A DNA stretch of 64,000 nucleotides from Massalongia carnosa (Eukaryota). This document shows positions 16,229 to 47,021 of this stretch, one piece after another. The number at the start of each line of letters is the position of its first letter. Within the stretch, counting starts at the first letter, position 1. The notes below the pieces were generated by a model. It was not told the origin of the DNA. It saw nothing but the letters and a program-made list of their open reading frames with translations, and did no database searches. The stretch covers positions 992,001-1,056,000 of the forward strand of contig OZ287087.1 of NCBI GenBank assembly GCA_965645245.1, in the 5' to 3' direction. A program made the position numbers and the translations under genes.

Positions 16229-16240
16229 GGGCTCATAACC
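16229..16240 (-). other. Primer-binding site GGTTATGAGCCC (half-tRNA-iMet type)
   Basis: Directly abuts the 5' LTR; resembles the Ty5/Drosophila copia PBS, which pairs with the tRNAiMet anticodon region. Confidence 0.8.
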
Positions 16241-17989
16241 TGTTGAATAGGTCTATGACGATGGCCATATGACTAGGTAAAGATAGGGGCCTGTATAACC
16301 ATGATGTTAAGGAAGCAGAGATGCTACGGAGTGCAGAGCAATCTGTTTCTTTTATCTTAGTCACCTCTGCTAAGCGAGATGGTAATAGTTTATCCGAGCC
16401 TCTATGCGATTAGATTAGATTTGATCTTATCTAATCTATCGGCTAGGCAATGCTGGTAGAAGTTGAACATTTAAAAACCAGTTATGATTTGCATTGAAAT
16501 CTCCACATATTTCGAATTGATCATTGAATTTAGGTTTATATTTGACTAAAAGTCGGTCGATTGTATATGTTTCTCGATCATTTTGACTTTTTGTAAATGT
16601 TGATAATATGCACTTTTCGAAATTCATCAATTGTAATCTGAATAATTTCCATATCGGTATCGTCAATAAGATCCGTTCTAGGCGTGCATTGTAATTTCGA
16701 ATTACATTTTGTGAAAAATATAGCTACTCTCGAGTGATAAGCTGCTATTTCCGGCATAATGCATGTGAATGACGGATGAGAGATAGTTTTTTGATAGCGT
16801 ATCCAAGGTTCCTGACATGAAACAATATCAATTTGATTTAATATTACATATTCTAGACAAGAAATCATTGCATTCGTTGACTTTACATAATTGTGTTGAA
16901 TAAATTTGACATTTTTTATATTTTCGATGTTTGTCAACGAATGCTGTCCTGCCATTACAAAACGGATAATTCGTCAATCGATTTTCGAACGTTTAACGAC
17001 GCAATCATTTCAAATCGTTCATCATTTGACTGATGATTTTGATTGCAATTGACGCATTTGACGACGACATGTGAACACCCTATTTTGGATTTGCAAGTTG
17101 TGCATTCATGATTTTGAGTTTCATAATTTTGTGCACATATATTTCATTTCGCTTGATATTTGCATTGACAATGCTTGTTTCCAAATTTTCGGCAATTGAT
17201 GCATTGCGTATTCTGACGAACGGAGGTATATATTTCCGTGTTATAGTGTCTTCCCGCGATATTTACACCTCTCAACGCGTACAAAGCAATATCTAAGAAT
17301 GATAAAATAGAGTTGAAATCTCCTTCGTGAAGTCTCTATCCAAGTTATCGTTCATCTCACTGGTGCGTTTTACGGCCCAAGACTATGGATAAATTCTACT
17401 ATTGGGGTAAACGACGTCCCTTTCGCCCAGGTCAAACCCAGTTTACTCCTTAAGTATATATCAAGGGCTAGTCTAGCCGTAGCCCATGCGCCGGCGAAAC
17501 GACGGGGTCTCGTTACGAGCGAGATAGAGATTCCCTGCTCTATATACACCGACATACGCATACTGTCCTCTCGGGCTATGCAGACGGTCTTCGTACGGTG
17601 GCCGCCATTGCATACCACGCCTCACGGGTTTTTTATGCCCACTTCGCGTTATTCATAAAGGTTTCCCGTTTATGAACCGACCATGTCTCGGAGGGGTTTC
17701 GACTACTATGCTCCTGACTGTAAGAACCTCTATCCAGGGAATATAAATAGTAGTCATCTACCTAAGAGGCTAAGCATGAAGAAGAGAATTCTATCTACAA
17801 AGAAAAATGTGAAATCTATATACCCCGTTTGCCCTTCTTCTCGAAGTTTCCATCAGGCTCTTGAAGCTTATCTCCGAAGCTTCGGTCGGAAAGAGCCGTT
17901 GGATTTAGCGCTCCCAAACCCGAGTCCTAACACTAACCCCCCCTCTTGGTTAGCGAGCTCCTGACCGCTGTCATGTGATTAGCTTCGGT

Positions 17990-20900
17990 CGCGGCTACTT
18001 TGGATATTTCTGATGATATTCTTCCACAGTTTCTTTTGAATTCGCAAAATCTTCGGCTGGATACCATGTGTTATCCGGTGGGTAATTGCTCTATTTTACC
18101 TTGTATTGTAGCTTCTTGTTGAAAGTTCTTGAATCCAAAATATCATCAATTTCAAATTCTTCCTCGTTGTCAATTATTACCGGTGGTGGAGGTGGGGGTA
18201 TTTGTCCGGGCAATCGGTCTTACTTGCTGGTCGGAGTAATAATGAATGGAAAATATCGTGTATTTTCATTGATGCTGGAAGATCTAACTTATAGCTATTC
18301 CCCAAAGCTTTTAATATCTTGTACGGTCCGATCATCTTATGATCTAGCTTTTTCGAAGACGTTTCCGTTTTGATATTTTTAGTTGATAGCCTAACTTCAT
18401 CTCCTTCTTTATAGGTTGGTGCTTCCTCCCGATGATTGGCGGGAATCTCTTCTGACTTTCTTGGCTTCGTACTAAGTTTTCTTTTCCGAATTCCCAGATT
18501 TCTCCATTACTTGGCCGATGTTTTTTGCTCGAGTTTTCAATATTCTTTTTCTGGCCGATCCAGTAGATGCGTCAATCGGATAGAAGCTCATCCTCGGTTC
18601 ATACCCATAGTTGACCTGAAATGGAGATAATCCACTTGAAGCTGAGATACAGGTATTTGATGCGAACTCGGCTATCGATAGTTACTCTGTCCAGTCATCA
18701 TGCTGATAATTGACATAGGTTCTCAGATATCGCTCCATTTCTTGATTGGATATTTCACTTTAGCCGTTGGTCTCGGGATAGAATGCGGTTGATAACTTGG
18801 CTTTTATTCCCAGCATTACGCATAGCGATTTTCAAACTAGCGATACGAATTGGGGTCCCCTATCTGAGATTATCGTGGTCGGTAGGCCATGCAATTTCCA
18901 TACATGTTTTATTAGCATTCGGGCTATCTCTTCGGCAGTTATCCCTTCTTCGTCCGTGGTACATGGGATGTAATGATGCATCTTGGAAAATCGGTCTACT
19001 ACTATTAATATTGCATTATGACCCTTGCTTTCGGGTAGGCCAGTTACGAAATCCATTGATATATCTGTCCAGGGCCGGTCTGGTATAGGTAGCGGATTTA
19101 ATAGTCCGGAATAGACGTCCCTTGGAGCTTTTGCTCTTTTGCACGTATGACAATTTCGAATGTATTGTTCTTTGGTCCTTTTATCTTTGGCCAAAAAAAG
19201 AATTTCTTCATTATCTCGTAGGTCCGCTTTTTCCCGGGATGGCCAACGGCTGGTTGATCGTGAACTTCCTGTATCAGCTTCATTCTCTTTTCTTCGGGGA
19301 CAAATACTTTGGCATTATTTTCGAGCAGATCTTTCGACTTTTCTACGTTGATCTCGTTCATTTCAAACCCCATTTCCTTTTTGATTTGAGGGTCTAGGCT
19401 TTCGAGAGGTAAGATTATCTGATTTTGATGCCTTTGCCTGTCATCTTCCTCTGATTCGGGCCTGTCTCCTTGTCTTCTAGTTAGTGCATCTGCCTTCGTA
19501 TGGAATTTTCCAGCTTGGTATGAGATGTCAAAATTGATATCGACCAGAAATTCAGCCTATCTGGCCTGTCGCCTATATAGCTTTTTGGTTGTCATGAAAT
19601 ATTCCAATCTTTTGTGGTCGGTCAACACTTTGATTGGGAGCTCGGTGGATTGCAGCTCAGGCCTCTATTGCTCGAAACATTTGATTATTGCAAGCAATTC
19701 TTTATCGTATATTTCATAATTGCATTCGGCTGGCAACAGGCTTATTGAAAAGAAGGCTACTGGTCTGATAAGTCCATCTTCCCCTCTTTGCGATAATACT
19801 CCGGCTGACACATAATCAGATGAATCCGATTCCACGAACGTTTCTCGGCTTGGGCTGAAATGCGCGAGGACCGGGGCCTCGGTCACCCGTCTTTTCAATT
19901 CGGAAAAAGCTGCTTGGCAGGCTGGGGTCCAATTGAATTGTTCGTCTTTTCGAGTTAGATGTACGAGGGGTTTGGTTATTTTGGAGAAGTCTTTGATAAA
20001 ACGTCTATAAAAGTTGATAAATCCTAGAAAGCCCTGCACCTGTTTAAGATGCCTAGGGATAGCCCATTCGACGACTGCCTCAATTTTGGTAGGGTCTATC
20101 TTGATCCCATTCCGCCCGACTACCACTCCTAGGAACTTTGTTTCGGTCACATGGAATTCGCATTGATCCATATCAGCCTGAATACCAGCTTCTCGAAGCT
20201 TTTGTAGAACCTTTCGAACATGTTTTCGGTGGTCAGTCATGGTTTCACTATAAACCAAGAGATCGTCCAGATATGCTATGAGGAATTCGTCTAGATATTC
20301 TAAGAAGGTATCGTTATTGAAGTTCTGAAACGTAGCAGGGCCGTTGGTCAGTCCGAAGGGTAATACTAGAGATTTATATGACCAAAATCGCGTGCGGAAG
20401 GTTGTGAGATCTTCGTCCTTTTCGGTTTTCATCCTAAGTCGGTTAAAGGCATGTCGAATATCTATTCTTGTCAAAAATTTAGCCCTGGCCAATCGAGACA
20501 TTATCTCAGATATCAGAGGTAGGGGATATAGATTTTTTTTGGTGATTTCGTTTAGCTTTCGATAATCGACGCAGAACCGAAATCCTTCACTCGGTTTCTT
20601 GGCGAATAGTATCGGCGAGGCAAATGGGGCCGAGCTGGCTGTAATAAATCCTTTCTTCAGATTTTCTTCCAAATATCTCTTGACCAGTAGGAGTTCTCCC
20701 TCTGACATTTTATATAGCGGGGCATGCCCAGGTCCTTCTTTAGCTTCTAGCAATTCGCTTGTATGGTTATGCTTTCTATGAGGGGGCAGTTCATCAGCTT
20801 TTTCCTTGGAGAAAACATCAAGAAAATCGTGATACTCGAGGGGGACTATGGTCTTAGGATCGGTATTTGGCTTTTCTCCCTTGGCTAGTTCAAAGTTGAT

Positions 20901-21650
20901 ATCTCTCAGCGAGACTGCAAATATCTCGACATCCTTTTGTTTCGTTAATACATTAAATGGGTCTGCACCTATCATCGCTATATTCAGGGCTTCTTCGCTC
21001 TCGGCGTCTTTTCTCCAAGACTTTTTCTTCAAGATATCTTCCTTTCTTGATCTTCGAACTGAAATCGGGTTCGAGTTGCTATGATTCTTTTCATCGGGTT
21101 CGTCTCTTTTCAATATCTTCTTTGGTTGGAATATAGGCGTGGTGTCCTTTGTTGAGCCTAGTTCTTCTCTCCTGATTGGTGACGATGGGAAAGGCCTTTC
21201 GGGGGCACCTAGATGATTGCAATGATCGGGACGAAAATAAATCGAATTCGTATGCCTATGATAGCTAACACTATGTTTTCGCATCCAAGACTTGCCAAGA
21301 GTAATCGTTTGTTGGCTCAGCTCGGTGATCAACATTGGTATTGAGCTCTCGGTATGGTTTCCAATTTTCAGAGATGGATAAATAGCCTGGGTAATAGGCT
21401 TGCATTTTCTTCCATCATATGCCTTTATCTCTTTCCGTCTATTTAACGTCACCGGTGAGATATTTGCCTTTTCACATATTTCCTGCGCAGTTAGTCTATC
21501 AACAAAACAATAACCAGTATATCCAGTATCAGTCATCGCTCTCGTATTAAATATATTTCCTACGATACAATCTTCCATTACTGGATGGTCATCGAATAAA
21601 TCATCCTCCATAAAGAAAGATCTGATAACCAACTCATCTACCCCCGCCGC
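17990..21650 (-). pseudogene. Gypsy-1 pol (PR-RT-RH-IN-chromodomain), disrupted
   Basis: ORF 19665..21632 (DTG, FCVDYRKLN, PFGLTNGPATFQ, YLDDLLVYS, ESDSS); IN ISMDFVTGLP, SDRGPQF; chromodomain EFEIDDILDS...YKVK..NTWYP at ~18020-18170. Confidence 0.92.
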
Positions 21651-21652
21651 GT

Positions 21653-22947
21653 CTATGACGGAGGTGCGTCTTTTCTCGAATCTTTTGCTTCTGCGCTCAT
21701 CTCGCTAACCCGTCCCTTTCTAGGCTGAGGGCAGTCTTTGGCCATATGCCCGGTCAGATCGCAGTTAAAACATCTTCCTTCCTTTATTCTTTTCTCCATA
21801 ATTGGATCGGGATGGGGGGCTTGGGCCATAAAGGGCGTTGAAGATCGGCTGCTGGTGGCGGAAGGCGTTGCGGGAGTACGGGTTAATGCGGGGGTGGAGG
21901 CCTTTATGATTGAGGTAGTCCCACCGGCCGTGCTTGCGATAAGTACTGAGGGGCCAACAAAGTTCTTTCGATAGCCTTTCGTCTTGGTCTCAACCTCGCG
22001 GATGGTCTGATCAGTATGCATGCGTAGGCGTGCGAATTTATACAAATCGGTGGCCTTGTAGGCCTCGACGGCTAGCATCTTCTGGAGCTCAAAGTTCATC
22101 TTATTGCGGAGCTCATTTAGTAGGGTCTTTTCGGAATATTCAAGTTCGTTGGCTAAGCGTTAGAATTCTGACCAGAAAGCATGGAATTCTCGATATTTAC
22201 CCACTTGTTTAAGGTCGCGGAATTCTCGCAGTGCTGTTTGTTCCTTGTGAGGATCACCATATACTCGGTTTAAATTATCGAAAATCTCTTCAGCAGTGGT
22301 AAATGGATTGGTAGACTCCTTTCTAAATCTAGAGGCTATAATCTTGACTGCCTTACCACCAACCCGAGTCCGTACATATGCCTTTTTCATGGCCTCGGTA
22401 GGGTACCAATCCGCATTACCTTCTAACTTATTTCGCATGCTAGATAGCCAGTCCTCGAAGTTGTCGTCTTTATTATTTTCGAGAATGGGTGGGTCAGGAA
22501 GCTCGGAAGATTTGCCAACTCCTTCGGGGGCAGGTGTTGACGCGGTAGTGGTCGTGTGTGTATACACATTCTCGGCCGATGCGTTGCTTGCGGACGATAT
22601 GTTGGTGTTTTGAAGAAATTGGATTATCACCTTAGCTTTATCCAATTCCTCTTGGGCCGAGTCCCGCTTATCGCGAAGGGTCCGGGCTATCTCTAACGTT
22701 TCATTGAATCATTCGGCCACCTTGTTCAATAGGTGGGTCTTCGTTCGGGACTCCGTCTTCAACTCAGTTATCATTTCCACCACCCGCTGGGGGTCCTGGC
22801 GGACAAATTCATTCAGTCTATCCACGGATTCGATGCTATATGGGAGTCATCATCAATAATATTAGGGACAATATACTCACGTCGGCCCTCCATGGGTTCG
22901 TCTATAGTGAGCCTACTCCTTCGAGGCTCGGTGATTACGCGGGGCAT
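21653..22947 (-). pseudogene. Gypsy-1 gag, disrupted
   Basis: ORFs 22160..22645 (LPDPP, FEDWLSSMRNKL) and 21653..22099 (CCHC knuckle); putative ATG at 22947. Confidence 0.85.
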
Positions 22948-23489
22948 TTTTCTTTCTTTCTTGGGGGTGTTCTTATCTTGTGATCTTCTATTCGATGGCC
23001 GAGAAATCCTGGTTTCTACGATCCTGGATTCTGGTTCTTCTGGGTCTGAGTTCTTCTTTTGATTTTGGTTATTCTGGTGACCTAGAAATCCTTGCTTCTA
23101 AGGTCCTATGATCTGGTTCTAGTCTAAGTTCCGGGTTCTTCTTACGCCGCGGAATGGGTTTGGTTGGGTTGGGTTCGGGTTGGGTTTTCATTGGGTTACC
23201 CAAATCACATGCTTAGTAATGGCAATCAATAACCTTGACTTATCAACGTGGCAATCGGCGTTAGTATCTTATGTATACTCAACTATACCATCTACTTACC
23301 ACCAGGCATACTCTTCCTGGTGGTTGGTTTTCTTAACGCACCAGTTCTGGCACCTGGTCCGGGTATAGAGATGCTTAGGGACAGTCGCTATTTTACTACT
23401 CATCCAGGTTGCGTACAAGCTAGCAGTTACACTACGTATTAATAATGTTGCTATTACTGACTAAGTGTATTCAACACCAACAAATCTAC

Positions 23490-24960
23490 CTATTGCGATG
23501 ACTTCAACTCCAAAAACTCGTCAGCCAATTGCGATACATCATCTTTTCTAGGCTTCATGGTTTTGGCAACCTTTCTCACTTGAGCCCTAGCCTGTTTGAC
23601 TGATTTCTCGACTCTTTGCTGAGATTCCAACTCCAACTGAGCCTTTGATTTCTTCGCCACACCCCGAGACCTTCGCGTTGTTGAAGAGGAAGTAGGGAGA
23701 ATTTGACTGGCGCGCACGTTTTGGCTAAGACTATATAGAAATGGAGCCGGCGCTGCCTGAGGTAGGGCTTTTTGACTATGCTTGGCAAGCACATCGTCAA
23801 TACCTTCGAGCGAATCCGACCATGCTTCTGATGTAAGAATAATATCATTTTCATCATCCGAAGGAAGCATAGGATTCATAGAGCGGCCGAGAATGGGCTG
23901 AGTGCTTATATACTGCACCTCGTCATCGTGGTCGGAGACGATAGACGCGTTTTCAATTCTCTCCATAACTAATTTTACTCCTAAACCTAATGTACCCAAT
24001 ATTAGCCGACCCGAGCGCAATAACTTTGCAATATCGTGAATTTTACAATCTGTTTCACCTTCAACCTCATCTTCGCCCCCAGCACGCAATTTATTATATC
24101 TAAGCCTCCTCCTTTGTTCAATAGAGTCCCTTCGCCTAGTACGTCGCTGTTCAGTTTCTCTAGCCTCAGCTGCCGCGCGACCAGTGTAGGCACGTCGACG
24201 ACTCCCTCCTTTCTTAGACATGAGGTTTTCTTTGGGCCGAATTTCGTCGGGGAATGTGGTGGGGATGAGAGGTCTTACCAGCTCCTTCTTTTGCCATTTC
24301 TTAATGAACTTTTCAACGATGTGAGCATGCTCGCGAGCGTACTCCTCCCATCGATGAATCTTCTATTGATTGATGCAGGTCAATAGATTGATATGCCACA
24401 GAACGTAGCAAATCAAGGCCCCCGCGGCGAAATCTATCCTCATTCAACATGCCTTCTTCGAGCTCGACCTCATCCTTATCCGCCTATATCTCTCCCGATC
24501 CTTCGACCTCATCGACGATCTTTTCGACCTTGGGCTCCGAGCCGCGAGCGAAATCGAAGGTTATTTGCCAAAAGACCACATAAGGTTGGCTATCAAAAAA
24601 CTAGCGGGGGTGGATGAGGGAAACGGGAATAGGGACCGAGTCGATGATGTAGTTATACAACCAGCATATGCATGGAAGACCGTACCTTAAAGGCAATTCA
24701 CAATTATAAACACAGCTTCCACTATCAGGAACAATAGAAAAGATTCGTTCAGCTAATGATATAGCGGCATCGAGTTCTCTTGAAACGAGGCCCATGGCAT
24801 GATGCGTAATTTTCCCAATGAGTAGCGTAAAAGCACTTCTATCGATCAATCTAGGATTGCGTATTCACTGTTGATTGCACAAAATCTCCTGATCTAACTG
24901 TTTTATCCGCACCTCATCACATATTTTCTGCACCGATTGTCTTATAGACAAGGGTAAATA
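23490..24960 (-). pseudogene. Mutator-like (MULE) transposase C-terminal fragment inside the hAT
   Basis: ORF 24601..24849 has SWIM-like C.YNCELPLRYGLPCIC.L...IHPR, followed by a basic low-complexity tail (ORF 23490..24221); no DDE core or own TIRs seen. Confidence 0.55.
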
Positions 24961-25055
24961 GTAAGTGAGGTATGCATGCGTTGGATTTGACTGAGTGTTT
25001 AGAACGTAAACGTAGTTATTAATTTTTTATCGCAGCATAATCTAGTAAATGAAGT

Positions 25056-25125
25056 TACATTCCTACTGCTACATTCCTACTGCTACATTCCTACTGCTAC
25101 ATTCCTACTGCTACATTCCTACTGT
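25056..25125. repeat. Minisatellite (TACATTCCTACTGC)x5
   Basis: 14-bp unit, 5 copies, just upstream of TATATATA and the transposase ATG. Confidence 0.95.
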
Positions 25126-25161
25126 AACATCCTATATATACAATCCTCGTCATTCGCAACA

Positions 25162-27705
25162 ATGAGCAGCTCGCAGATGATGGATTCAGAGACACACGAT
25201 CTTCAAGTTGTGGGCAAACCCACCAAATGCTACGCATATATGGCGGAGAAGAGCGAGGAGTTTATGGAATGGTGGCGAAGTACGAGATGGCATTTTGCTA
25301 ATAAAGAGAAGAGTAGAAAGGCGATGAAGAAGATCAATTGGGGATCGACTAAAAGAAAGGCGGCGGAATAGAAATAGTTTCAGGAAGGCGCCACTGTGAG
25401 CGAGAGTAATCCTAAAATAATCTGCTCGCGATGCTCCCTGGTCTTGACTCATCCCTCAATGGGATCCGGAAATAACTGCATGACTAATCACTTAAATTCC
25501 GAGTCCTGTAAAAAGACGTCGACAGTGAATGGTATGAAGCAACTTTCCTTAAAGGTTGGATATCGTGCCGAAGTATGACTACCACAATTACTACCATATT
25601 ACGTACTTTGCTAATCAATATTAGATTGAAGCAAAAAGACAAGAAGCCTTGACTCCCAACGGGCGTAGATTAAAAAAGGATAATTTCACGCCTCAATTGC
25701 TTCGTATGATTGTTGCTCTTGGGCTACCGTTACGAAGTGTCGCCAATGTCGAATTGCAAAGAGCGTTCAACTTTCTGCTCGATAATGTACAGTTTCCTTC
25801 ACCATCGACAATCAAGAATCGCTTGATGACCCGAAGTCAAGGCATTATTCCGCTTTTGCTCGAGAGGCTACCTAGGGGTAGTTCAAAAGTCTCTCTGGCT
25901 TTGCATTGTTGGTCGTCATTAAATCGTCAAGGTTATCTGGCAATCAATACTTACTACATTGACGATAAACGGAATTATCACGAAGTGCTTCTTGCCTTCG
26001 AACACGTTGAAGGCTCACACACGGGTATAAAACTTGCTAAAGTATTGAACAGCGTTTTAATTAGAAATTCTATTGAAGATCGTGTTTTGGCATTAACCAC
26101 GGACAGTGCATCTAATAACACAACGATGGTAGATGAGTTGCAACGAATGATACGAAGCAATCAAGCCTTGGCACTTCTACACACTGATGCAAATGAGATA
26201 CAGCGAGTGCCTTGTTTATCGCATGTAATTCAACTTGCCGTGAAACAGCTACTTGGGTATATTCACATTAATCCCAAAAATGCCGATTTCAAAACTAGCT
26301 GGGATGATAAGAAAGATAGACGGGATTTCGAAAACCCGATACCTGGAGTTCTCCTTACGCTAGCTAAGGGCAAGATTTACTTTGTAGTAGTCTTTGTGGT
26401 AGTCGTTCTAAATTTCGATTAGGTTCGAGCATTAGCTGTTTACATTAACAGTAGCAATTTACGTAAGGAGAACTTCTACGCTGTTCAACGAGCATTGAAT
26501 AACGAAGAGAGATGCACTGGAAACTCGGCCAGCGGTACAGTACTTAAGCATTTTCAAGATGTAAATACTCGATGAGACTCCACATGTCACATGTTAATTC
26601 GAGCGCTCAAGTTGAGACAAGCGCTGAATAGATATCAAGATAAACATGAAGCCGAGTATTTGAGATTGCTCGACGTGGAATGGTCACAGATAGAATATCT
26701 TATCGATTTAACGAAGCTATTCTGCGTCTTCACAAAGATGATTGGTTAATCAAAGCAACCGACCATTCATCAGGAGTTCGAGATCTACAATAAGCTGTTC
26801 GATCATCTGGATCAAGCTCGCGCAAGATTATGTCGTAAGCGAGTATCGTGGAAACGTGCGTTATTGAATGGCATCGAGGCGGCTGCAACGAAATTACGTC
26901 AATACTATTCTAAAACTCAGGGGTCATTAGGTTATCTATATGGAAAGGCGGCATTGTTATCTCCCAATTAGAAGGACCTAATTTTGAAGGGTCCCAATTG
27001 GGATGCGCCCTAGGGGAAAGTCGATGGGAAGATCAATATTGGCAATCTCTGGAAGCGGAACTCGATATCTACGAGAATTCTCAAACCTCACAAGTACGCG
27101 GGCGTAATGTCGCGGTCATTCGAGACTTGAATTATCTGGATCTTCTTCTGAGTACGAATATTGCTACTCCGCTTGCTATAGATGACGAGTTCAACTGCAA
27201 TCGTCAGCGAGGTAGGTTCACTACTACTATAAATCAGATCTTTTCTCATTGTGTTCAACTTATTTACAATACACAGCGATGCATGATCGTTCGGGTCCTA
27301 TTCTACAATAGTGGAAAGATCTCGAGCTGGAGTTTCCACAAATGAGTATGGTTGCCAGGGACATCCTTGCTGTACCAGCCGCTGGCGTTGGATATGAGCG
27401 CGTTTTTAGCGTTGCGGGAGCCCTTTATGATCATCGCAAGAATTTTCATCCGGATACATTCTCCGCGATGATGATGGTTCGTTTCTACGATCAGAAGGAT
27501 AATGCAGATGCAAGTTTACACGTAGATTTGAAAGAAGAAGAAAGCATGAGTCTTGAGGAGTTTACTAATGAGATGCAAAGGCGACATGAAGACCTAACAC
27601 AGGTTTTTCAGAAGGTCTACATCAGTGATAAAGAAGTCGATAACAATGACGATGACCAGTTAACGCAGATCGGGTCATCGCAGGTTGAGGAGGTCTCAGC
27701 GCGAG
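25162..27705 (+). pseudogene. hAT transposase with three predicted introns, several stops; 3' end in the gap
   Basis: BED-like CSRC..NHL; SLAL(H)CWSS, HTG, TTDSASNN, CLSHVIQLAV, dimerization domain ARDILAVPAAGVGYERVFS; introns ~25573-25624, ~26369-26422, 27212-27276. Confidence 0.88.
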
Positions 27706-27905
27706 NNNNNNNNNNNNNNNNNNNNNNNNNNNNNNNNNNNNNNNNNNNNNNNNNNNNNNNNNNNNNNNNNNNNNNNNNNNNNNNNNNNNNNNNNNNNNNN
27801 NNNNNNNNNNNNNNNNNNNNNNNNNNNNNNNNNNNNNNNNNNNNNNNNNNNNNNNNNNNNNNNNNNNNNNNNNNNNNNNNNNNNNNNNNNNNNNNNNNNN
27901 NNNNN
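27706..27905. other. Assembly gap (200 N)
   Basis: Run of N next to GA-rich low-complexity sequence; matching hAT and Gypsy TSDs on either side support the scaffold join. Confidence 0.99.
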
Positions 27906-30900: not shown

Positions 30901-31146
30901 ATGCATTTGGGTCAGCAATATACACAAAAATCCATTTATAGACGATAATATCGATGATTTATCAAATTTAGACGTCGAAAACGACGATAATTGGCCAGAT
31001 TTGACCGAAAACGAGTTGAAAAATGCGATTAATTTATTTAATCCGACGAAAGCAAGTGGACCTGATGCAATCAATTTTACAATTGTTCAAAAATCGTTTC
31101 AATCGTTGAAAAACGTGTTTTTCATGATTTATGCGAAATTTATTCG

Positions 31147-31317
31147 TGTGACGAAGCGAGATAGTGAATAGATTTCTACCATTGCGCCACCTATCCTTCC
31201 CGACCAAAAGGCACAATACTTAGTCCGCAGACCAAGCTCTATTCTACAATAACTGGGACTCCTGCTATGTTCGCTGTAGGTCCTGCCGGCCGCACCACGC
31301 TTGGTCGAACCGTTACA
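31147..31317. mobile_element. Solo LTR, family S2 (171 bp)
   Basis: TGTGACG...CGTTACA, perfect TSD ATTCG; inverted copy at 42376..42546. Confidence 0.92.
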
Positions 31318-34478: not shown

Positions 34479-34789
34479 GAATCAGATGTTTTACCAGTCA
34501 AACTTCTATTATTAATGAAAAATCTAAAATACGCAATTCGATTATTGAAGATTGCCGAAAATAACTCTATTTGTCAAAGAATTCCAAAAATATATTCGAT
34601 AAAATTCGAAAACATCGGTTTTGACACTAGTTTAAGGAATAACAAATATGTTGAATGGAACGAAGTCGAAAAACAAACAATAAACCGACATACTTGTCAG
34701 CTTATTCCCGTTCTTCATTCCGTTTCCGAAATAGTCCACAAAACTTATAAATTTGGACAATCATATAATTTTATTAAACCTTGGAAATC

Positions 34790-35965: not shown

Positions 35966-37667
35966 ACAACGGAGACGCCAAAGGCCTCACCGTGGGGCGA
36001 CCGTCAAATATATAGATTTGCTCCTATCTCTTCGCATCAAAATATTAATAATTTAACGCGTTCAAACGCGTCGCAGACGTACGTACGGAAGAGGATACGA
36101 AGGCCAACCGCCGGGGGGGTAGAATGCGCGCGTCCCTGCACCATGCTTCTAAGGGTTCAAGTTCCTTCATGCAGTCATCAGCTGGAAGAAGATGTGGACC
36201 AAAGGAGCCATAATCCCCTACCCGGGTACAGTCGAATCGCGTTCTAGCTCCTGAGAGTTCAAGTCTCCCTATGCAGTCATCAGATAGGATGAACTGAACG
36301 CGTAAAGGCACTGGCGCGAAAGCTGTCACCTTAAGTAAACTCCATCTCGGAGCAGAATAACAATATCCCATTTATAGGCCAACCTGTTAAATAAAATCGA
36401 GGAAAATACAGAGTCACAAAACAAATAGTCATCAATCACACGTTGTACAAAGCACACAGTCGCAAACATACAGTCACAAACAAATGGTCACAAATCATAT
36501 AGTCACAAAAAACACAATCACAAATCAATAACACGTCCCTGTGAAGGGGGTTCTGCGGAGGCTCGTTAAGACAGATCTGCACTCCGATAATATCGGAGTA
36601 TATATTTTTAGAGGTTCAAGTCCTTTCTAGCAGTCATCAGCTAAAATTAATTTATTTTGACACCGGCATGGTGTGGATTTGACAAGGGTAGACCTCGATA
36701 GATCACAAAACGAATAAAAAGAGTTCAGCGGAACTTCGTTAATATTGTTCTCGAAGACCTCGTTAATAAGATTTTTGTAGACCTCGTAAACAACGTTCGG
36801 TCATACTTTTAAATTTTCAAGTCCTTTCATGCAGTAATCGGCTGAGAACTATAGACGTATGACACGGGTCAGCTATGTCTATCACACGGGTCTCCTTCGT
36901 ATACAAAACGGAGCTCTCCGGCTGAAAGAAATAACACATATAGACAAATAGTGTAGGGTCATACCCTATACGATACAAGGCATTTTGGTTATGAAAACCA
37001 TCCGATTGATAGCTACCGTGAGCATCACGGCCCGAACCGAAGTCTTACCGGGGATGGTGGAGGCAATTTATTCGTCAAATAGGACACGCTTGGGACAAGA
37101 AGAGGGTAATATACGAGGAGCCCGTTAATTGATAACAGTCTAGGCCCTTAGCTAATAGACGAATTCCTAACGAGCGCCCCTCCGAGTTGTCCTCGACTCG
37201 TTTTAGTTAGTAGGGACGGAAAGTCGATACTATACTGAGTGGTCAGGAGCATAGTGGTTGAAATCCCTACGAGTCATGGTCGGTTCATAAACGGGAGGAC
37301 TTTATGAATAACGCGAAGTAGGCGTAAAAAACCCCTGAGGCGTGGTATGCAACAGCGGCCACCGTACGGAGACCGTCTGCATAGCCAGAGACGACAGTAT
37401 ACGCATGTCGGTGTAAATAGAGCAGGGGATGTCTATCTCGCTCATAACGAGACCCCGTCGTTTCGAGGGCGCATTAGCTACGGCTAGACTTGCCCTTGAT
37501 ATGTGCTTAAGGAGTAAACTTGGTTTGACCTGGGCGAAAGTGACGTCGTTCACCCCAATCGTAGAAATCATCAATAGTCTTGGCCCCTAAAACGCACCAG
37601 TGATATGAACGAAAACTGGGATAGAGACTTTACGAAGGAGATGTCAACTCTATTTTACCATTCTTAG

Positions 37668-39131
37668 CCTTTGACACGCAATCCAAAAACTATTTCTCAT
37701 CCGTAATTTACATAATTATGCCGAAAATAGCAGCTTATCGATCGAGAGTAGCTGTATTTGTTACAGAATGCAATTCGAAATTAAATTGAACGTCAAGAAC
37801 GGATCTTATTGACGATACCGATATGCAAATTATCCAGATTACAATTGATAAAGTTCGAAATGTGCACATTATCAGCATTTACAATGAAAAAAGTTAAAAC
37901 GATCGAGAAACATATACAATTAACCGACTTTTAGTCAAATATTAACCATTATTCAATGATCAATTCGTAATATATGGAAATTTCAATGAAAATCATAACT
38001 GGTGGAATTCGAAAATACAGCATGCAATTCGATCTGAAAATCTATACAAATAATTAAAATTATAAAAGAGTAGTTTGATTGATACGCCTCATTTATGCAC
38101 ATTTTATGCCCATTTTGGTTGTTCTGCATCTGTTATTGATTTAACCTTTGCAAATACTAAAATCAAAAATGCAATAACAAATTGATCAATCGATAAAAAC
38201 GCAGTCACAGGTTCAGATCATGACCTCATTCGATTTGAATTTATCGCATATTTTAAGAATTTGACGACACATGCAACCGTATTATCAAACAAATACAATT
38301 ACAATAAATCCGAGTATAACAAGTTCTTAAAGTTTTTAGATGAAAATTCAATAAGCTACGAAAAACCAGTTCAAAGTTTATTGAATAATCATAAATTCGA
38401 CGAATCAGCGATTTATTTGCAAGATATTATTATTATTATTAAATTCATAATCGTTGTGAAATCAGCTACAGCCGACCCATGCGAGAAAAGCTATCAAAGT
38501 TTCAAAGAAGGAAAACCCTCATCTAGGGGAAAAAACCTTCATCTGTATACCTACACGTGATCGCTCGACCTCACTTCGCGAATGGTACGATTTGCCAGCG
38601 CCACGTCTACGACACATATGTGTATCAAGAGACTGCCTTCTGTCTCTGTTATAACTAGAGTTTGTGACTATCACTACGCGACAGTCTGGGGGAGGAAGAA
38701 AGACAATCTACAGCTAGCGAAAACTGTGTCAATAGATTAGTCCGCATAAGCCAACGAGCGGAGGCTTGTAAGCCCTTTTCGGTGGTCTGAAGGCGGCGAT
38801 AATCCGTCGTTCCGGCGTCTCTGTACATGTTGCTTCGGCCGTTAACAAACTTGGGGCAGCTGAGTAGTACATGCTTGTGGGAACTCGACGAGAGAATCGA
38901 TAATCCGCCAAGCCAATACGCTCAGTACGCACTTGAATTATGAGACTGCTATCGGATTTGCTGAAGTTCTTATGTAATCCTAGTCTCTATATAGAAAGAT
39001 CTTCAGTAAGCTCAGCGCAGGGATGAGGCTGATGAGCCGCCTGATGCAAGATATTATTAAAGACGTAGCTGAATTATTTATTCCGAAGACTAAAATATTT
39101 GCAAAATCGAAAAATTGGTAGTCGCAAGATT
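37668..39131 (+). mobile_element. 5'-truncated LINE-A (APE region) fused to X copy 2
   Basis: Begins just after the QE of QEPW; continues TISHP..., TGSDHD; rejoins across 38433..39044. Confidence 0.8.
38433..39044 (-). mobile_element. Short 3' fragment of a Tad-like LINE
   Basis: TSD TGCAAGATATTATTA (38418-38432/39045-39059); (TAA)n tail; IQVRTERIGLADY homologous to the LINE-B C-terminus. Confidence 0.88.
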
Positions 39132-40500
39132 TATTTTTTTATTTATTCATCAAGTTTATTAAAACTAAGGTTATGACATTAAACTATTTTATGATATATT
39201 TCTATAATACAAATCAATCAATCAATCAACCAATCTCTGAATCGTCAATTTTGCCCCGTTTTTATACCGTGTTAGTAACACCTAAAAATAATCGAATTTA
39301 GATTTTACAATTTGTGTTTGTAAACTTCGTAAATGTTTCAGCATAAATCAATTCTGATTTTACTGTCGATCTCTTCCCAACCTCCCGTTTCGAGAATTTC
39401 GTCTTCTAGCTGACCTAGTATCCATTTTCTAGTAGCGATTTTTGTTTTAACAATAAACTTTATCAAAATATCATTTCCAATTTTGGTATTGAATAACATA
39501 TTTAAATTGATTGTAGTATCTGCATTTTATTTCATTATTTGAATCTCTTTAAAATAGTGAATGCAGTTCAGCAATAGATGTTCTGGTGTTTGAAGATCGT
39601 TACATCGATGTGTGCATTTCGACGAATTATAATCTTTCAATCGATGTAGATATGATCGGAAATAATAGTGTCCGAACTTCAGCTGTATAATGGTATCAAA
39701 GATCAATTTCGAATAATTGTTTGACAAACGATAAAAACTCGATTTGCTATGTTACATTTCGAATTTCTCGTAAGATTTGCCTTTTAACCTGCATCGTTGC
39801 CATTGATTCGTCCATGTTTTTAGCGTATATTGATAAATTTGACTTTTCAAATAGTCCAATGTGATCGCTGATGACTCCACTAGGATTTGACTGTGACCCG
39901 ATTTCGCCGTTTTGTCTGCAATTTCATTTTCGATAATTTTCAAATGACTAGGAATCCATTGCAGAATTATCTGAAATTTATTTTTGAATAAACATTTGGC
40001 AATCTTTCGAATTTGCTTCGCGTAAATATGATTAGTAAAATTTTGAATTTCATTTATCGCATTTAAACTATCGGAAAATATCCATATTGTTTTTTCATTC
40101 GCGTTCGTCAATTTATATGTCCATTTGACTGTTTGTGAAATCGCACGAAGTTTAGCATTTTAAATGCTTGACTGTTTGCTACAATTTCCAGCTTTTCGAA
40201 ATTGTATAATATTTAATAAAGCAATCTTTTTCAATAAAGTGATCGAAATCATCGATAAAATTGTTCTATTTTTGGATAATTGGTGCAAATGTGACAGCAG
40301 AAGTTGCAAATTTGACTTTTGAACCATCCGTATAAAGTAATATTCGTGATATATCGGAATTCGTAGATTGAATTTTTGACAAAGTCGAATAATAACTTGA
40401 TTTTGCTGTTTCTTTTGACTTATTAATTTGAAATTCAATTTGAAAGGACGAATTCTATGGTTCATAAAGTTATTTGATTGTTCGAATTCATCAGTTTTGT

Positions 40501-43234
40501 TTTTTTTTTTTTATACATTAAGTGTATACATCCTAAGGTTATGATACTAAACTATTTAAGGATATGTTTATATATTACAAATAAATCAATCCTTTATAAC
40601 CTATCTATGTATCGTCAATTTTTCCCAATTTTTACTCCGTGTTAATAATAACCTATAGTAATCGAAAAATATCGAGTTTAAAATTTGTTTTTCTAAGTTC
40701 GCAAATGTTTCAGCACAACTTGTTTCCGATTTTACTGTTCGATCTCTCCGCAACCTCCAGTATCGAAAATATTGTCATCAAGCTGACCTAGTATCAATTT
40801 TCTAGTCGCGATTTTGTTATTGACAATGACTTTAATCACAATGTCATTTCCGATTTTTGTATTAAACAAGATATTCAAGATGATCGTAGTATCGATACTT
40901 TGTTTCATGTTTTGAATTTCATCGAAATAGTGAATGCAATTCAATAACAAGTTTTCTGGTGTTTGTCGTTGATTGCATCGATTTGTGCATTTTGACAAAT
41001 TATGATCATTCAATCAATGTAAATATAATCGAAAATAGCCGTGTCCGAACTTTAATTGCATAATAGTAGCAAATATCAATTTGGAACAGAAGTTTCATAA
41101 ATAATAAAATCTCGATATGCCAGGTTTCATTTCGAATTTCTAGTAGTATTTGCCTTTTGATTTGTATTGTTACCATTTATTCGTCCATGTCTTTAGCATA
41201 TTTTGATTTATTTGATCTTTTAAAGAATCAAATATTATCGCCGAGGACTCGACTAGGATTTGATTATGGCCCATCTTTGAGCTTTTTTCTGCAATTTCGT
41301 TTTCGGTAATATTTGAATGACTCGGAACCCATTGCAAAATCACCTGATAATTGATTTAAATTAAGCGTTTGCGAGCTTTCGAATTTGTCTTGCGAAAATA
41401 TGATTTGTCAAATTATGAATTTCGTTTATCGCGTTTATACTATCAGCAAAAATCCAAATCGTTTTTTCTAAATTCGATAAAATATTAGTATTGGACAATT
41501 CATAGACCCATTTCATTGCTTGTAAAATCGCATGCAGTTCAGCATTTTTAATGCTTGACTGTTTGCTTAATTTCCAGCTTTTCAAAATGGTATGATACTT
41601 GATCAGACAATTTTTTTCGATAAATCGATAAAATTACTGATAATATTACTCTAATTCCTTATAATTGGCGCAAATGTGACTGCAGACGTTGCAAATTCAA
41701 TTTTTGATCTATCCGTATAAAGTAAAACTCGGGATTTATCGGAGTTCATTGATTGAATTTTTGATAGGGTTGAATAATAACTAGATTTAGCAGATTAATT
41801 TGTATTTTCGATTTGAAATTAGATTCCGCACGGCGATTTCAAAGGTTTAATAAAATGATTTGATTGTTCAAATTCATCAGTTTTGTGAACTATGTCGGAA
41901 ATGGAATGAAGAACGCGAATAAGCTGACTAGGATGTCGTTTATTTGTTTGCTTTTCGTCTTCGTTCCTTTCGGCATATTTGTTGTTCCATAAACTAGTGT
42001 CAAAACCGATGTTTTCGAATTTCATCGAATATGAGTTTGGAATTCTTTGACAAATAGGGTTATTTTCGGCAATCTTCAAAAATCGAATTGAGTATTTTTG
42101 TTTTTCATAACTAATCGAAGTTTAACAGGTAAAATATTTGATTCAATTTCCCTCGCCTGAATAGCTGTGGTTTTGAAAGTTCCTAAAATCTTTCGAATAA
42201 TTCGATTTTGTAGGTTCTGAAACAGTTTTCATATTTCTTTTGACCATTATGCCAAATTTCTGAGCCGTAGTCCGAAATAGGAATAATGCATGACAAATAG
42301 AGCTGTCTTCATGCGGTCGGTTTCAGACACCATTCGGATTTCATCAAATTCTGAATTACAAAAAACGATCGATTCTGTAACGGTTCGACCAAGCGTGGTG
42401 CGGACGGCAGGACCTACAGCGAACATAGCATTAGTCCCAGTTATAGTAGAATAGAGCTTGGTCTGCGCACTAAGTATTGTGCCTTTTGTTCGGGAAGGAC
42501 AGGTGGCGCAATGGTAGAAATCTATTCACTATCTCGCTTCGTAACAGATTTGCAGAAGAGATTCGCGTTTCGACGTGTTTTTTGAAATTTAGTTTTCGGT
42601 CTAACCAGACACCCAACCATTTGACTATATTTTTCGGTTCTAGTACTGTCCCGTTTCGTAATTCCAATATTTCTTTCGATACATTTCTTTTCTTTTCGAA
42701 GTAAATCAGCTCGGATTTATCGTCATTAAATTTGACATTATTCGATGCGGCCCAATCAAAGGCCGTTTTGACTTTGATTCCGATTTCTATGCAATTCTGT
42801 TTTGCAGTTTTATTTTCGAAATATATTGCAAAATCTTTAATAAAACTGGGAGAATTTGCATTGAATTTCATTCGTATTTTAGGAAACAAGTGACCAATGT
42901 AAATCAGAAATAGAATAGGCGAGATTGGTGATGCTTGTGGAATTCCTGATTCGAAATAATATGTTTTGCTTTTAATTTTATCAAATATCAAATTGTTCGA
43001 TCGTTTTGTCATGAAATGCTTGACCCATTGAATTATTGTGGGGGGTGGTTTTGGCTTTTTCATAATATTTAGCAGTTGATTAATCGAGATAAAGTCAAAT
43101 TCGCCCTTAACATCGAGTAATAAACATGATAAGACGTTTTTATTTCGATTGGCAATTTCATTATTATGAACAACATTTATTACTGCGTCGATTGCAGAAT
43201 GATTTTTGCGTCCGCCCATCTGTTCGATGTCGAG
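40501..43234 (-). mobile_element. 5'-truncated LINE-A (RT-RNase H-3'UTR-polyA) fused to X copy 3
   Basis: Poly(A) at 40501-40513; ORF 42470..43219 (NHSAIDAV, PISPILF); RNase H NAELHAI, IFADS. Confidence 0.9.
42376..42546. mobile_element. Solo LTR, family S2
   Basis: TGTAACG...CGTAACA, TSD GATTC/GATTT (1 mismatch); inverted homologue of 31147..31317. Confidence 0.9.
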
Positions 43235-44951
43235 CTAAGAATGATAAAATAGAGTTGACATCTCCTTCGTGAAGTCTCTATCCCAGTTTTCGTTCATCTC
43301 ACTGGTGTATTTTACGGCCCAAGACTATTGATGAACTCTACGATTGGGGTGGACGACATCCCTTTCACCCAGGTCAAACCAAGTATACTCCTTAAGCATA
43401 TATCAAGTGCGAGTCTAGCTGTAGCCGATGCACCGGCGAACCGACGGGGTCTCGTTATTAGCGAGATAGACATTCCCTGCTCTATATTAACCGACATGCG
43501 CATACTCTCCTCTCGGGCTTTGCAGACGGTCTCTGTACGGTGGCCGCAATTGCATACCACGCCTCACGGGTTTTTTAACCCCACTTCGCGTTATTTATAA
43601 AGGTCTCCCTTTTATGAACCGACCATGTCTCGGACAGATTTCGACAGCTATGCTCCTTACCAGGCAGTAGAGTATCCATTTTCCGTCCCTACTAACCAAA
43701 ACGAGTCGAGGACAACTCGGAGGGGTGCTCGTTTGAAATTCGTCTATTAGCTCAGGGCCTAGACTTTTATCAATTAACGGGTTCCTCGTATATTGCTGTC
43801 TTCTTGTCCCAAGGGTGTCCTATTTGATGAATACGTTGACTCCACCATCCCCGGTACGACTCCGGTTCGGGCCGTGTTGCTCACGGTAGCCATCAATCGG
43901 ATGGTTTTCATAACCCAATCCCTTGTATCGTGTAGGGTGTTACCCTACACTATGTATCTATATGTTTTATTTCTTTCAGCCGGAGGGCTCCGTGTTGAAG
44001 ACGAAGGAGACCCTTGTGATAGACATAGCTGACCCGTGTCGTACGTCTTTAGCTCTCAGCCGATGACTGCATAAAAAGACTTGAACCTTTAAGAGTATGA
44101 CCAAACGTTGTTAACGAGGTCTATGAAAATTTTATTAACGAGGTCTTCGAGATCAATATTAAGGAAATTCCGCTGAACTCTTTTCATTTGTTTTGTGCTC
44201 AATCGAGGTCTACCCGTGTCAAATCCACACCATGCCCGTGTCAAAATACATTATTTTCAGCTGGACTTGAACAACTAAAAATATGTAATCCGATATTAAC
44301 GGGGTTCAGATCTGTCTTAACGAGCCCCTGCAGAGCCCCCTTCACAGGGACATGTTATTGATTTGTGACTGTGTTTTTTATGACTGTGTGTTTTGTGACT
44401 GTATGTTTGTAATTGTATGTTTGTGACTGTTTGCTTTGTGACTGTGTGCTTTGTACAACGTGTGATTGATGACTATGTGTTTTGTGACTTTGTTTTCCTC
44501 GATTTTAGTTAACAAGCCGGGCCTATTAAATGGGATATTGTTATTCTGCTCCGAGATGGAGTTTTCTTGAGGTGACAGCATTCGCCCCGGTGCCTTTACG
44601 CGTTCTGTTGATCCCAGCTGATGACTGCATGGGGAGACTTGAACTCCCAGGAGCTAGAACGCCTTTCGACTGTGCCCGGGTGGGGGATGATCCGGCTCCT
44701 TTGGTCCACATCTTCTTTCAGCTGATGACTGCATGAAGGGACTTGAACCCTTAGAAGCATGGTGCAGGGACGCGCGCATTCTACCCCCCGGCGGTTGTCC
44801 TTCGTATCCTCTTCCGTACGTACGTCTGTGACGCGTGTGAACGCGTTAAATTAGCATTGTTTTTATGCGAAGAGATAGGTGCAAATCGATTTTTGACGGT
44901 CGTTCCACGGTGAGGACAGATGGTATAGAAGGAGGAGGACCAATGGTGTAG
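43235..44951 (-). mobile_element. Unclassified element X, copy 3 (uninterrupted, ~1.7 kb)
   Basis: Starts CTAAGAATGATAAAATAGAGTTG exactly like copy 1; ends in ~2 units of the 23-bp repeat. Confidence 0.88.
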
Positions 44952-47021
44952 GCTCGTCCGTCTCGAATCTTATCTGTATCGAGTTCTTATATTCAGCGGT
45001 GAAAAGAGCTCTCATCAGTTGTTTGAACTATGTCCGAAACGGAGTGCAGAACGCGAATAAGCTGACTAGGATATCGTTATTTGATTGTTTTTCGTCTTCG
45101 TTCCATTCTTCATATTTGTTGTTCCATACGCTAGTATCAAAACCGATGTTTTCGAATTTCATCGAATATGTGTTTGGAATTCTTTTATAAAGGGGATTAT
45201 TTTCGGTAATCTTCAATAATCGAATAGCATACTTTTTATTTTTTATGAATAATCATAATCTTACTGGTGAGATATGTGATTCAATTTCTATCGACTCATC
45301 TGTTGTTGTTTTGAATGTTCCTAAAATCTTTCGAATCATCCGATTTTGCAAATTTTGAAATAGTTTTTTATATTTCTTTTGACCATTGTACCAAATTTCT
45401 GAACCATAATCTGAAATAGAAACGATGCATGACAAATAAATCTGTCTGCATGCTGTCGGTTTTAGACCCCATTCCGAGTTCATCAAATTTTGAATCGCAA
45501 AGAACGACCGATTTGCAGATGAAATTCGAGTTTCGACATGTTTTTTGTAATTCAGTTTTCGATTTAGCCAGATTCCCAACCATTTGACTATATTTTGCGG
45601 TTCTAGTATGGTTCCGTTGGGTAATTGCAGTGTGTCTTTCGATGCATTTCTTGTCTTTTCGATGTGAATCTGTTCGGATTTATCGTCATCAAATTTAACA
45701 TTATTCGATGCGGCCCAATCAGATGTTATTTTAACTATGATTTCAATTTCTTTGCAATTCTGTTTTGCAGTTTTGTTTTCGACATATCTTGCAACATCGT
45801 CAATAAAACTAGGAGAACGTGCATTGAATTCAATTACGTAATTTCGGAAATAAGTGACGAATATAGATCGAAAATAATATATGCGAAATAGGTGAGCCCT
45901 GTGGAATTCCTGATTCAATATAATAGGTTTGCTTTTTATGTTCATCGATTATTAGATTGACCGATCGTTATGTAATAATATGTTTCACAAATTGAATAAC
46001 TATGCGAGATAATTTCAGAATTTTTATGACATTTAACAGCTGATTAATCGATACAAAGTTAAAAGCTCCTTTGATGTCGAGTTATAAATATGATAAAATA
46101 TTCTTTTTTCGATTTCCTATTTCGATATCATAAACGACGGTCATGACTGCGTCAATTGCAGAATGATTTATGCGTCCGCCCATCTGTTCGATATCTAATT
46201 AATTCGAATTTTCGACGATGTAGGCAATGCGATTTGCAACGATTTTGTCAGCAATTTTACCACAACAGTTTAGTAAAGTGATAATCCGATATGATTTTGG
46301 CAGCCAATGGTCTGATTTATTAGGTTTTTTCAAAAACTGCACCGAATCCTGTTCGCAAGCATAAAGGATTAAGACCGGTTTTGTATAAATTTTTAAAAAA
46401 TCATAAAAAACACGTTTTTCACCGATCGAAACGATTTTTGAACAATTGTGAAATTGATTGCATCAGATCCACATGCTTTTTTCGGATTAAACAAACTAAT
46501 CGCTTTTTGCACCTTGTTTTCTGTCAAATCCGGCCAAATATCGTTATCTTCATTGTTTTGATTCGATAAATCTTCAACATTATCGTCAATAAATGGGTTT
46601 TTTGTGTACATTGCTGCCACAAATGCATCGCATTTGTCATCGAATTGAAAATTTAACTTATTTTTACATTGAATCGGTGGTATTTTTTCGAATATGCGCG
46701 GTTTGGTGTATTTATACGCGGTAAATACGTCTTTATTCGCTGCATTTTCTAGAAAAGTCAACCAAGTCTGTTGTTTTGATTTTCGAATTGCATGAAAATA
46801 TTCGATTCGACTATGTTTAAACGTTCTATGACTAAAATCGGACGGTTAATTCTTCTATTCTCGTCGATATATTGACATTATTTTCCGAAGTTCGGTTAAA
46901 TCTTGCGACCACCAATTTTTCGATTTTGCACATATTTTTGGTCTTCGGTATAAACAATTCAGCTGCCTCTTAAATAATATCTTACAAATAAATCGCTGAT
47001 TCGTCGAATTTATAATTATTC

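Follow-up and report, generated by a model that had tools for sequence, protein, structure and literature searches.

A non-coding sequence of about 1.7 kb joined by a constant 3' end to truncated LINE-A copies in Massalongia carnosa: probable chimeric retroelements of the MINE type

How does a sequence without coding capacity come to lie, always with the same last nucleotide, directly in front of differently truncated copies of a long interspersed nuclear element (LINE)? This question is raised by a stretch of 64,000 bp from Massalongia carnosa (assembly GCA_965645245.1, contig OZ287087.1, positions 992,001 to 1,056,000 of the forward strand; hereafter the window, in whose coordinates positions are given unless stated otherwise). 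Within the window, a sequence here termed X adjoins copies of a LINE termed LINE-A, and an earlier sequence-only reading of the window, made from its letters and a list of its open reading frames (ORFs), had proposed that X derives from an RNA captured by the LINE-A machinery. The X-LINE-A units are probably chimeric retrocopies that originated from this machinery by the joining of a non-adenylated X RNA to an incompletely copied LINE-A RNA. They belong to the MINE-type chimeric retroelements and do not constitute a new category, although their host, their length and their internal repeats differ. MINE itself was described from Magnaporthe grisea/oryzae as a non-coding sequence of 1.1 kb, WEIRD, fused to the LINE MGL (Gogvadze et al. 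2007, PMC2104539; all statements on MINE refer to this publication).

Copy 3 of X served as reference copy and as BLASTN query against the window. Three copies of around 1.7 kb each and no further fragment were found, with matches spanning 17293..17715 and 28774..30025/30106 in copy 1 and 35941/35985..37667 in copy 2 (for the full extent of all features see Table 1). The pairwise identity among the three copies ranges from 86.6 to 88.9%. All three exhibit the common 3' terminus ...TCAACTCTATTTTA(T/C)CATTCTTAG; the BLASTN search and the comparison of the termini thus agree in a passenger of about 1.7 kb, present in three copies with one identical 3' end nucleotide, as had been proposed. The bases situated directly 3' of X differ among the copies (ATATTGC, CCTTTGA, and CTCGACA), and one identical end point with three different partners rules out chance. 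The start of copy 2, which had been placed near 34790, is found at 34787, where X-type units of 23 bp begin that are followed by an insert measuring about 1 kb and bearing the ends TG...CA. Each copy possesses between 64 and 106 private substitutions, around half of which are transitions, and C>T changes preceding A are in excess in copies 1 and 2. The X copies are old, copy 3 being the youngest among them.

LINE-A contains an ORF1 with CCHC knuckles, an endonuclease domain (Exo_endo_phos_2), and a reverse transcriptase (RT) domain (RVT_1). As a ruler, copy 1 was stitched together by its coordinates, such that X occupies the stitched positions 1-1770 and LINE-A the stitched positions 1771-6224. 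In all three chimeras, LINE-A follows directly 3' of X in the same sense, without poly(A) or any other spacer, and its truncation point is a different one each time (stitched positions 1771, 2255, and 3790 in chimeras 1, 2, and 3, respectively). Chimera 1 retains the tail of ORF1 alone, the switch point being situated about 110 residues before the ORF1 C-terminus and upstream of the CCHC knuckles. In chimera 2, LINE-A begins about 170 bases upstream of the first match to the endonuclease domain, and in chimera 3 it begins at the RT domain (positions 40-204 of the RVT_1 profile in the ORF 42470-43234). Alignments and domain matches are therefore in accordance with the three starting points given in the sequence-only reading, i.e., the ORF1 C-terminus, the start of the endonuclease (APE), and the start of the RT. 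All three chimeras must be non-autonomous. X is found at the 5' end of three of the five LINE-A insertions in the window.

In none of the three copies does the LINE-A sequence flanking the 5' side of X run on into the one following X, which had likewise been stated before. At copy 2, LINE-A ends at stitched position 4978 on the left and restarts at 2255 on the right; at copy 3, it ends at 4938 and restarts at 3790 beyond X; and at copy 1, the LINE-A adjoining the other side lies in opposite orientation. Nor is X a part of LINE-A. The ORF1 of Q, an older LINE-A copy of the window that lacks X, was used as query and yielded 32 proteins from assemblies of ENA and Logan, some of which are full-length ORF1s (453-524 aa). 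Full-length ORF1s (P0121, P0124, P0125, and P0128) and that of Q are unbroken across the position of the copy-1 junction (...SSVVLTFNDRN/MALNALKG..., with the slash at the junction), the intact ORF1 reaches more than 1 kb further upstream than the LINE-A starts of the chimeras, and the sequence that Q possesses at the place of X in copy 1 is unrelated to X. Since the ORF1 of related LINE-A copies reads through this junction, X does not represent LINE-A's own 5' region, an origin that had been named beforehand as speaking against a captured RNA.

Chimera 3, which is situated within Q, is the one chimera of which both ends are visible. On the minus strand, Q reads ...GGACATAGTTCAAACAACTGATGA, followed by 60 bases that are unique in the window, by X, by LINE-A, and by a tail of 13 A (A13), after which Q resumes at CAAAACTGATGAATTCGAAC...; the homologous uninterrupted stretch in chimera 1 reads ...TAAAACTGATGAATTCGAAC, and in comparison with copy 1, Q is continuous across chimera 3. 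The duplicated target around the unit 40500..45011 comprises 12-14 bp, of which 9 bases are exact. A single target-site duplication (TSD) of about 13 bp that brackets poly(A), LINE-A, X, and filler within an older LINE-A had been noticed before and is hereby corroborated; TSD and poly(A) around the whole unit are present in the only chimera (1/1) with both ends visible. X and LINE-A were integrated together by one LINE-type event. The joining of X to LINE-A took place at least three separate times, and each time X contributed its complete 3' end and, as it appears, its complete or nearly complete 5' end. The 60-nt filler could be a third RNA that was added by a second template switch (cf. the tripartite MINE), or it could be sequence from upstream of an X source gene.

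X possesses no terminal inverted repeats (TIR), tail, or TSD of its own, in line with the earlier description. An inverted-repeat scan of copy 3 revealed only two short pairs, neither of which links both ends, poly(A) or another tail belonging to X itself is absent in the copies of the window, and in chimera 3 a single TSD is shared by X and LINE-A. X is also non-coding. Its longest ORFs in the three copies comprise 113, 108, and 113 aa, compared with means of 101-106 aa in shuffled sequences, and the fraction of shuffles with an ORF at least as long as that of X amounts to 0.31-0.35. Under genetic code 4 (TGA=W), used with regard to a mitovirus-like origin, no ORF of X exceeds 122 aa. The Rfam scan of 43000-45200 (E<=1) gave one sole match, the SpR10 sRNA, at chance level (30.4 bits vs. 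a gathering score of 50), and it revealed neither a ribozyme nor any further processing motif in X. According to ARAGORN, X contains no tRNA gene.

Concerning its repeats, the 5' end of X consists of an array of a 23-bp unit, ATCGGTCCTCCTC(C/T)TTCTACACC, that is found solely at the 5' ends of X (8 out of 8 matches in the window). Copy 1 contains about three of these units, copy 2 five and a further one and a half, and copy 3 one and a half. The first base of copy 1 (30123) and of copy 2 (34787) is at the same time the first base of a unit, which fits copying to a fixed 5' end of an RNA. In addition, X contains an internal array with a unit of 14-15 bp (ACAGTCACAAA...) and, four times per X, a motif of 29 nt (GTTCAAGTC-YYYYY-NW-GCAGTCATCRGCT; in copy 3, e.g., at 44720-44748, 44616-44644, and 44058-44086); all 11 matches of this motif in the window are located inside X. 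The 5' half of the motif exhibits a possible stem of 5 bp with a 7-nt loop TTCAAGT, similar to the T arm of a tRNA. The stem sequences differ among the four modules, the folding of the modules is not better than that of shuffles, and the T-arm-like hairpin is found in three of the four minimum-energy folds.

Outside the window, eight public runs share words with 43000-45100, among them one run labelled as lichen metagenome; the best run (organism A) holds 0.46 of these words. Logan contigs of four runs were aligned at >=80% likeness over 42500-45300, i.e., over X plus the LINE flanks, and the number of aligned contig pieces was 5471 in run X1 and 920, 166, and 594 in the other runs. The pieces of run X1 comprise 1150 with a likeness of >=99%, 1867 with 95-99%, 1939 with 90-95%, and 515 with <90%. 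The summed depth of X in relation to that of the adjoining LINE-A is about 0.5 in run X1, 0.4 in X4, 0.2 in X3, and 0.1 in X2, Logan contig depths not being copy numbers, and the bin of the 60-nt filler exhibits in X1 a depth about 7-fold below that of X. At 44951, joints and loose ends of the Logan contigs bring additional AAGGAG... units, such that most copies extend the 23-bp array where copy 3 possesses the filler. A contig of 618 nt from organism B is about 94% identical to X up to 43234 and continues with 84 letters unlike the LINE-A of copy 3, which hints at one more X junction. Based on this contig evidence, X apparently forms a family of high copy number that is present in two or more labelled organisms. 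The antisense X ORF of 113 aa, taken as protein query, matched only four predicted proteins on four ENA contigs; all of them lie within X, and none of the four crosses an X junction. Scans with short words of X yielded chance matches in metagenome contigs (20-nt 3' end, 7 loci) and in prokaryote genome contigs (16-mer, 88 loci; 21-mer, 0 loci) and no locus in viral contigs (21-mer). BLASTN of X plus LINE-A against 95 records resulted only in matches of 21-28 nt.

The formation of the chimeras by the LINE-A machinery might have proceeded as follows. Reverse transcription would be primed at the nicked target and would start from the poly(A) tail of a LINE-A transcript (target-primed reverse transcription, TPRT). 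Before the 5' end of the LINE was reached, copying would pass onto an X RNA that is separate and non-adenylated, entering it at its 3' end and continuing through to its 5' end, and the fused cDNA would then integrate, thereby creating a single TSD. Concerning the joining, two routes are conceivable: the RT may switch templates, or the X RNA may have been ligated beforehand to a broken LINE-A RNA. The X RNA would be a non-coding molecule of about 1.7 kb, whose 3' end is fixed at ...CAUUCUUAG and whose 5' end lies within the array of 23-nt units. We infer that there is a free X RNA without poly(A), that its 3' end results from processing rather than from polyadenylation, and that the LINE-A RT, or a ligase acting earlier, joins this end to a shortened LINE-A RNA. 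Fungi splice their tRNAs with a Trl1-type ligase, which also joins cyclic-phosphate and 5'-OH ends, such that the route by prior ligation is conceivable here. Every structural prediction that follows from an RNA with a fixed 3' end, its joining to truncated LINE-A, and LINE-type integration, and that is testable in the window, agrees with the findings. TSDs belonging to X itself, continuous flanks, and a Helitron, which had been named as contrary evidence, were each looked for in the window, and none of them was found.

Some observations weigh against this interpretation. Of the three chimeras, only chimera 3 can be checked for a TSD, chimera 1 being cut off at its 3' end and chimera 2 ending outside the window. 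At the switch site of MINE, GCC is found before and A/U after the junction (PMC2104539). Such a motif is present at none of the three LINE-A switch sites, before which the intact LINE-A copies read ...ATAGAA, ...CAGGAA, and ...ATTTA or ...ATTAA, i.e., AGAA, GGAA, and TTTA/TTAA directly upstream. Folded as two halves, X copy 3 exhibits unremarkable energies (z = 0.26 and -1.14), which give no sign of X as a structured functional RNA. The 5' ends of X are not strictly identical, as the unit numbers vary and copy 3 possesses 60 extra bases. Within the window, the only part of the genome covered here, a master copy of X free of LINE-A was not found. Finally, none of the eight public runs mentioned above is on record as RNA.

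The alternative that survives best, although we regard it as unlikely, considers X as the 5' module, equipped with a promoter, of a non-autonomous retroelement that propagates itself, the chimeras being the source genes and a cellular master gene being absent. A signal inside X would direct the cleavage of chimera transcripts at the X end, and the freed X RNA would be rejoined to LINE-A RNA or cDNA. It is favoured by the high copy number of X and by the differences among all three junctions of the window, according to which new chimeras arise repeatedly. The variable 5' array of 23-bp units is presumably comparable to the monomer arrays of LINE promoters. From Magnaporthe, too, no solo copy of WEIRD is known (PMC2104539). 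The signal inside X is the point where this alternative meets contrary evidence, as no ribozyme or processing motif of X was revealed by Rfam (E<=1). Taken further, it would make X a LINE parasite of a new type, travelling at the 5' end of the LINE instead of imitating its 3' tail: X would carry a promoter, its RNA would be cut to a precise, non-adenylated 3' end and systematically joined to LINE-A RNA or cDNA, and each chimera would act as a new source gene, again without a cellular master gene. We consider this conclusion doubtful; if true, it would also account for the absence of solo WEIRD in Magnaporthe.

The combination of a fixed upstream end with variable downstream points also resembles one splice donor used with several acceptors, in which case X would be a 5' exon with its donor at the X end, and the chimeras would be retrocopies of cis- or trans-spliced RNA with cryptic acceptors in LINE-A. 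However, AG is found directly before the LINE-A switch point in none of the three cases (as judged from the intact LINE-A copies), and splicing is thus very improbable. Hardly any better is the assumption of a full-length ancestor, composed of X and a complete LINE-A, that underwent three independent internal deletions: it would explain why X appears full-length in every copy and why shortening is confined to the LINE part, but all three deletions would need one identical start base, and X is in no case accompanied by the part of ORF1 that precedes the copy-1 junction. That X is a DNA or retro-element inserting into LINE-A with a preference for site or orientation can practically be dismissed, for although X always adjoins LINE-A, the latter is nowhere continuous across it (0/3), X lacks TIR, its own TSD, and a tail, and the TSD of chimera 3 encloses X plus 2.7 kb of LINE-A and poly(A).

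Two known classes of elements were also considered for X and rejected. A Helitron does not come into question, as the 3' end of X is CTTAG and not CTRR, the next base is A, C, or C but never T, the inverted-repeat scan shows no terminal hairpin, and chimera 3 possesses a TSD and poly(A). Concerning short interspersed nuclear elements (SINEs), neither a tRNA (ARAGORN) nor 7SL or 5S (Rfam) is found in X, hence no RNA polymerase III (Pol III) head is seen, and the junctions are variable.

The window as a whole appears to be a nest of transposable elements, in which no host gene was noticed (Table 1). Searches of the window recovered neither the LINE-A tail that chimera 1 lacks nor the remainder of the LINE-A of chimera 2 or of LINE-A P, the target of chimera 2. 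The TSD of Q, as a sign that Q cut chimera 2, was searched for in the window and not found.

Table 1. Position of the X copies, the chimeras, and the elements associated with them in the window (LTR: long terminal repeat)
Feature	Position	Strand	Remarks
X copy 1, 3' part	17293..17718	-	terminates ...CATTCTTAG at 17293
X copy 1, 5' part	28780..30123	-	three 23-bp units at its 5' end (30055-30123)
X copy 2, 5' array	34787..34902	+	five 23-bp units; directly adjoins LINE-A P at LINE position 4978
Insert in 5' array of X copy 2	34903..35929	+	about 1 kb, TG...CA ends, solo LTR-like
X copy 2, body	35930..37667	+	terminates ...CATTCTTAG at 37667
X copy 3, reference copy	43235..44951	-	BLASTN
Chimera 1 overall	6498-30123	-	hosts copia element, 482-bp element, Ty3-type element
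LINE-A of chimera 1, ORF1 part	16477..17292	-	start inside ORF1
LINE-A of chimera 1, endonuclease and RT region	7611..10617	-	
LINE-A of chimera 1, 3' region	6498..7128	-	tail cut at about 6498; poly(A)/TSD not visible
Ty3-type LTR retrotransposon in X copy 1	17719..28779	-	LTRs 17719-17938 and 28562-28779; 11 kb; later insertion
Copia-type LTR element in LINE-A of chimera 1	10622..16471	-	later insertion
Chimera 2 overall	34787-39131	+	cut at 39131 by 3' end of LINE-A Q
LINE-A of chimera 2	37668..39131	+	LINE positions 2255-3087; 614-bp insert 38433-39046
LINE-A P, target of chimera 2	30188..34790	+	LINE positions 2940-4978; foreign LINE nested at about 32418-34538
Filler 5' of X copy 3	44952..45011	-	60 nt, unique in window
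LINE-A of chimera 3	40513..43234	-	RT domain start to LINE 3' end
A13 tail of chimera 3	40500..40512	-	
TSD 3' copy, chimera 3	40488..40499	-	CAAAACTGATGA
TSD 5' copy, chimera 3	45012..45025	-	CAAACAACTGATGA
LINE-A Q, older, without X	39130..54245	-	pieces 39238-40498, 45012-47028, 52077-54245 including ORF1
Copia element in Q	about 47029-52076		

Several of the other elements are inserted into the chimeras and their hosts or adjoin them. The LINE-A of chimera 1 contains at 7129-7610 an element of 482 bp flanked by a duplication of 7 bp (TTTCAAA), of which an inverted copy with 97% identity is found at 587-1083; it is a short non-autonomous element of recent date. A third LINE (1710-6233, plus strand), with fragments of an endonuclease (3288-3917) and an RT (4044-4658), borders on chimera 1 where the 3' end of the latter is cut off, and the Ty3-type element that splits X copy 1 contains a fragment of a hAT dimerisation domain (27312-27938). 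Within P, a second LINE, unrelated to LINE-A, is situated at 32418-34538 and possesses an open RT frame of 605 aa (32680-34497, minus strand), whose best relative in the databases is 73% identical and whose named relatives are about 40% identical (Lasallia, Histoplasma, Lachnellula). P furthermore exhibits a tandem duplication of 295 bp (30286-30857) with 1.9 copies and 94% matches. Q is adjoined by a Tc1/mariner-type transposase (DDE_3, HTH_Tnp_Tc3_2) at 55034-56083. At the end of the window, a Ty3/chromovirus-type LTR retrotransposon (56685-64000) contains a gag ORF of 425 aa and an unbroken pol ORF of 1174 aa (58720-62244) with RT, RNase H, integrase, and chromodomain; its LTRs (56685-57963 and 62722-64000) are 99.5% identical over 1279 bp, and the element extends beyond the window. 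It appears to be young and may be active.

Among the known systems, SINEs are similar to the X-LINE-A chimeras insofar as the chimeras end in the 3' region of the LINE, such that recognition by the LINE RT would be possible if they are transcribed. They differ in that X comprises 1.7 kb and lacks a Pol III-type head, and in that its junction to the LINE varies from copy to copy, whereas it is fixed within a SINE family.

A closer similarity exists to mammalian chimeras, in which U6, U3, or 28S RNA is fused to L1, a fusion ascribed either to template switching during TPRT or to earlier ligation by RtcB (PMC13174262 and PMC6789731; work of Buzdin and colleagues on such chimeras is cited in PMC2104539). 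As far as described in these sources, the analogy to U6/L1 drawn in the sequence-only reading proved appropriate, as the architecture is the same: a non-adenylated 5' partner with a defined 3' end is joined in sense to a variably truncated LINE, and one TSD surrounds both parts. The partners themselves are different, U6 being a small nuclear RNA of 107 nt, transcribed by Pol III and ending in a 2',3'-cyclic phosphate, whereas X comprises 1.7 kb. Furthermore, U6/L1 chimeras constitute a very small share of the L1 copies, whereas three of the five LINE-A insertions in the window carry X.

The organization of the chimeras is most similar to that of MINE. There, 33 elements exhibit 28 different truncation sites of MGL, TSDs comprise 10-20 bp, and microhomology at the junction is absent (PMC2104539, which names GenBank EF585235-EF585237 for WEIRD/MINE). 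According to the same source, chimeras made by LINEs are characterized by a full-length cellular RNA at the 5' side, a 5'-truncated LINE at the 3' side, varied truncation, a direct junction in the same sense, and flanking repeats together with poly(A). In the window, a 5'-truncated LINE, varied truncation sites, and a direct same-sense junction are each found in 3/3 chimeras, and repeats with poly(A) in 1/1. MINE and the X-LINE-A units share a non-coding 5' part of about 1-2 kb, its direct same-sense join to a variably truncated fungal LINE, and a TSD at the level of the whole unit; in both, the chimeras account for a large share of the copies of the LINE, and microhomology at the junctions is lacking. 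The idea that X-LINE-A represents a kind not recognised so far is therefore not upheld, since this architecture has already been described for MINE. Despite this general similarity in architecture, there are differences in the host and in the length of the non-coding part (1.1 kb in WEIRD, 1.7 kb in X), and X, compared with MINE, carries the 23-bp array at its 5' end, the internal 14-15-bp array, and the four copies of the 29-nt motif.

In the literature searched, no other fungal or lichen family of the MINE kind was found besides the Magnaporthe work. For genome annotation, the assignment is of relevance in that X, without it, will be labelled wrongly, either as an unknown repeat or as a LINE's 5' region. 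The identity of WEIRD and the reason why one RNA is chosen so often have been open questions since 2005-2007. A second, apparently high-copy case in a distant ascomycete would allow the chemistry of the RNA ends, the promoter-like 5' repeats, and the presence or absence of a master gene to be compared between X and WEIRD, and such a comparison could tell cellular RNAs caught by accident from dedicated hitch-hikers at the 5' end of LINEs.

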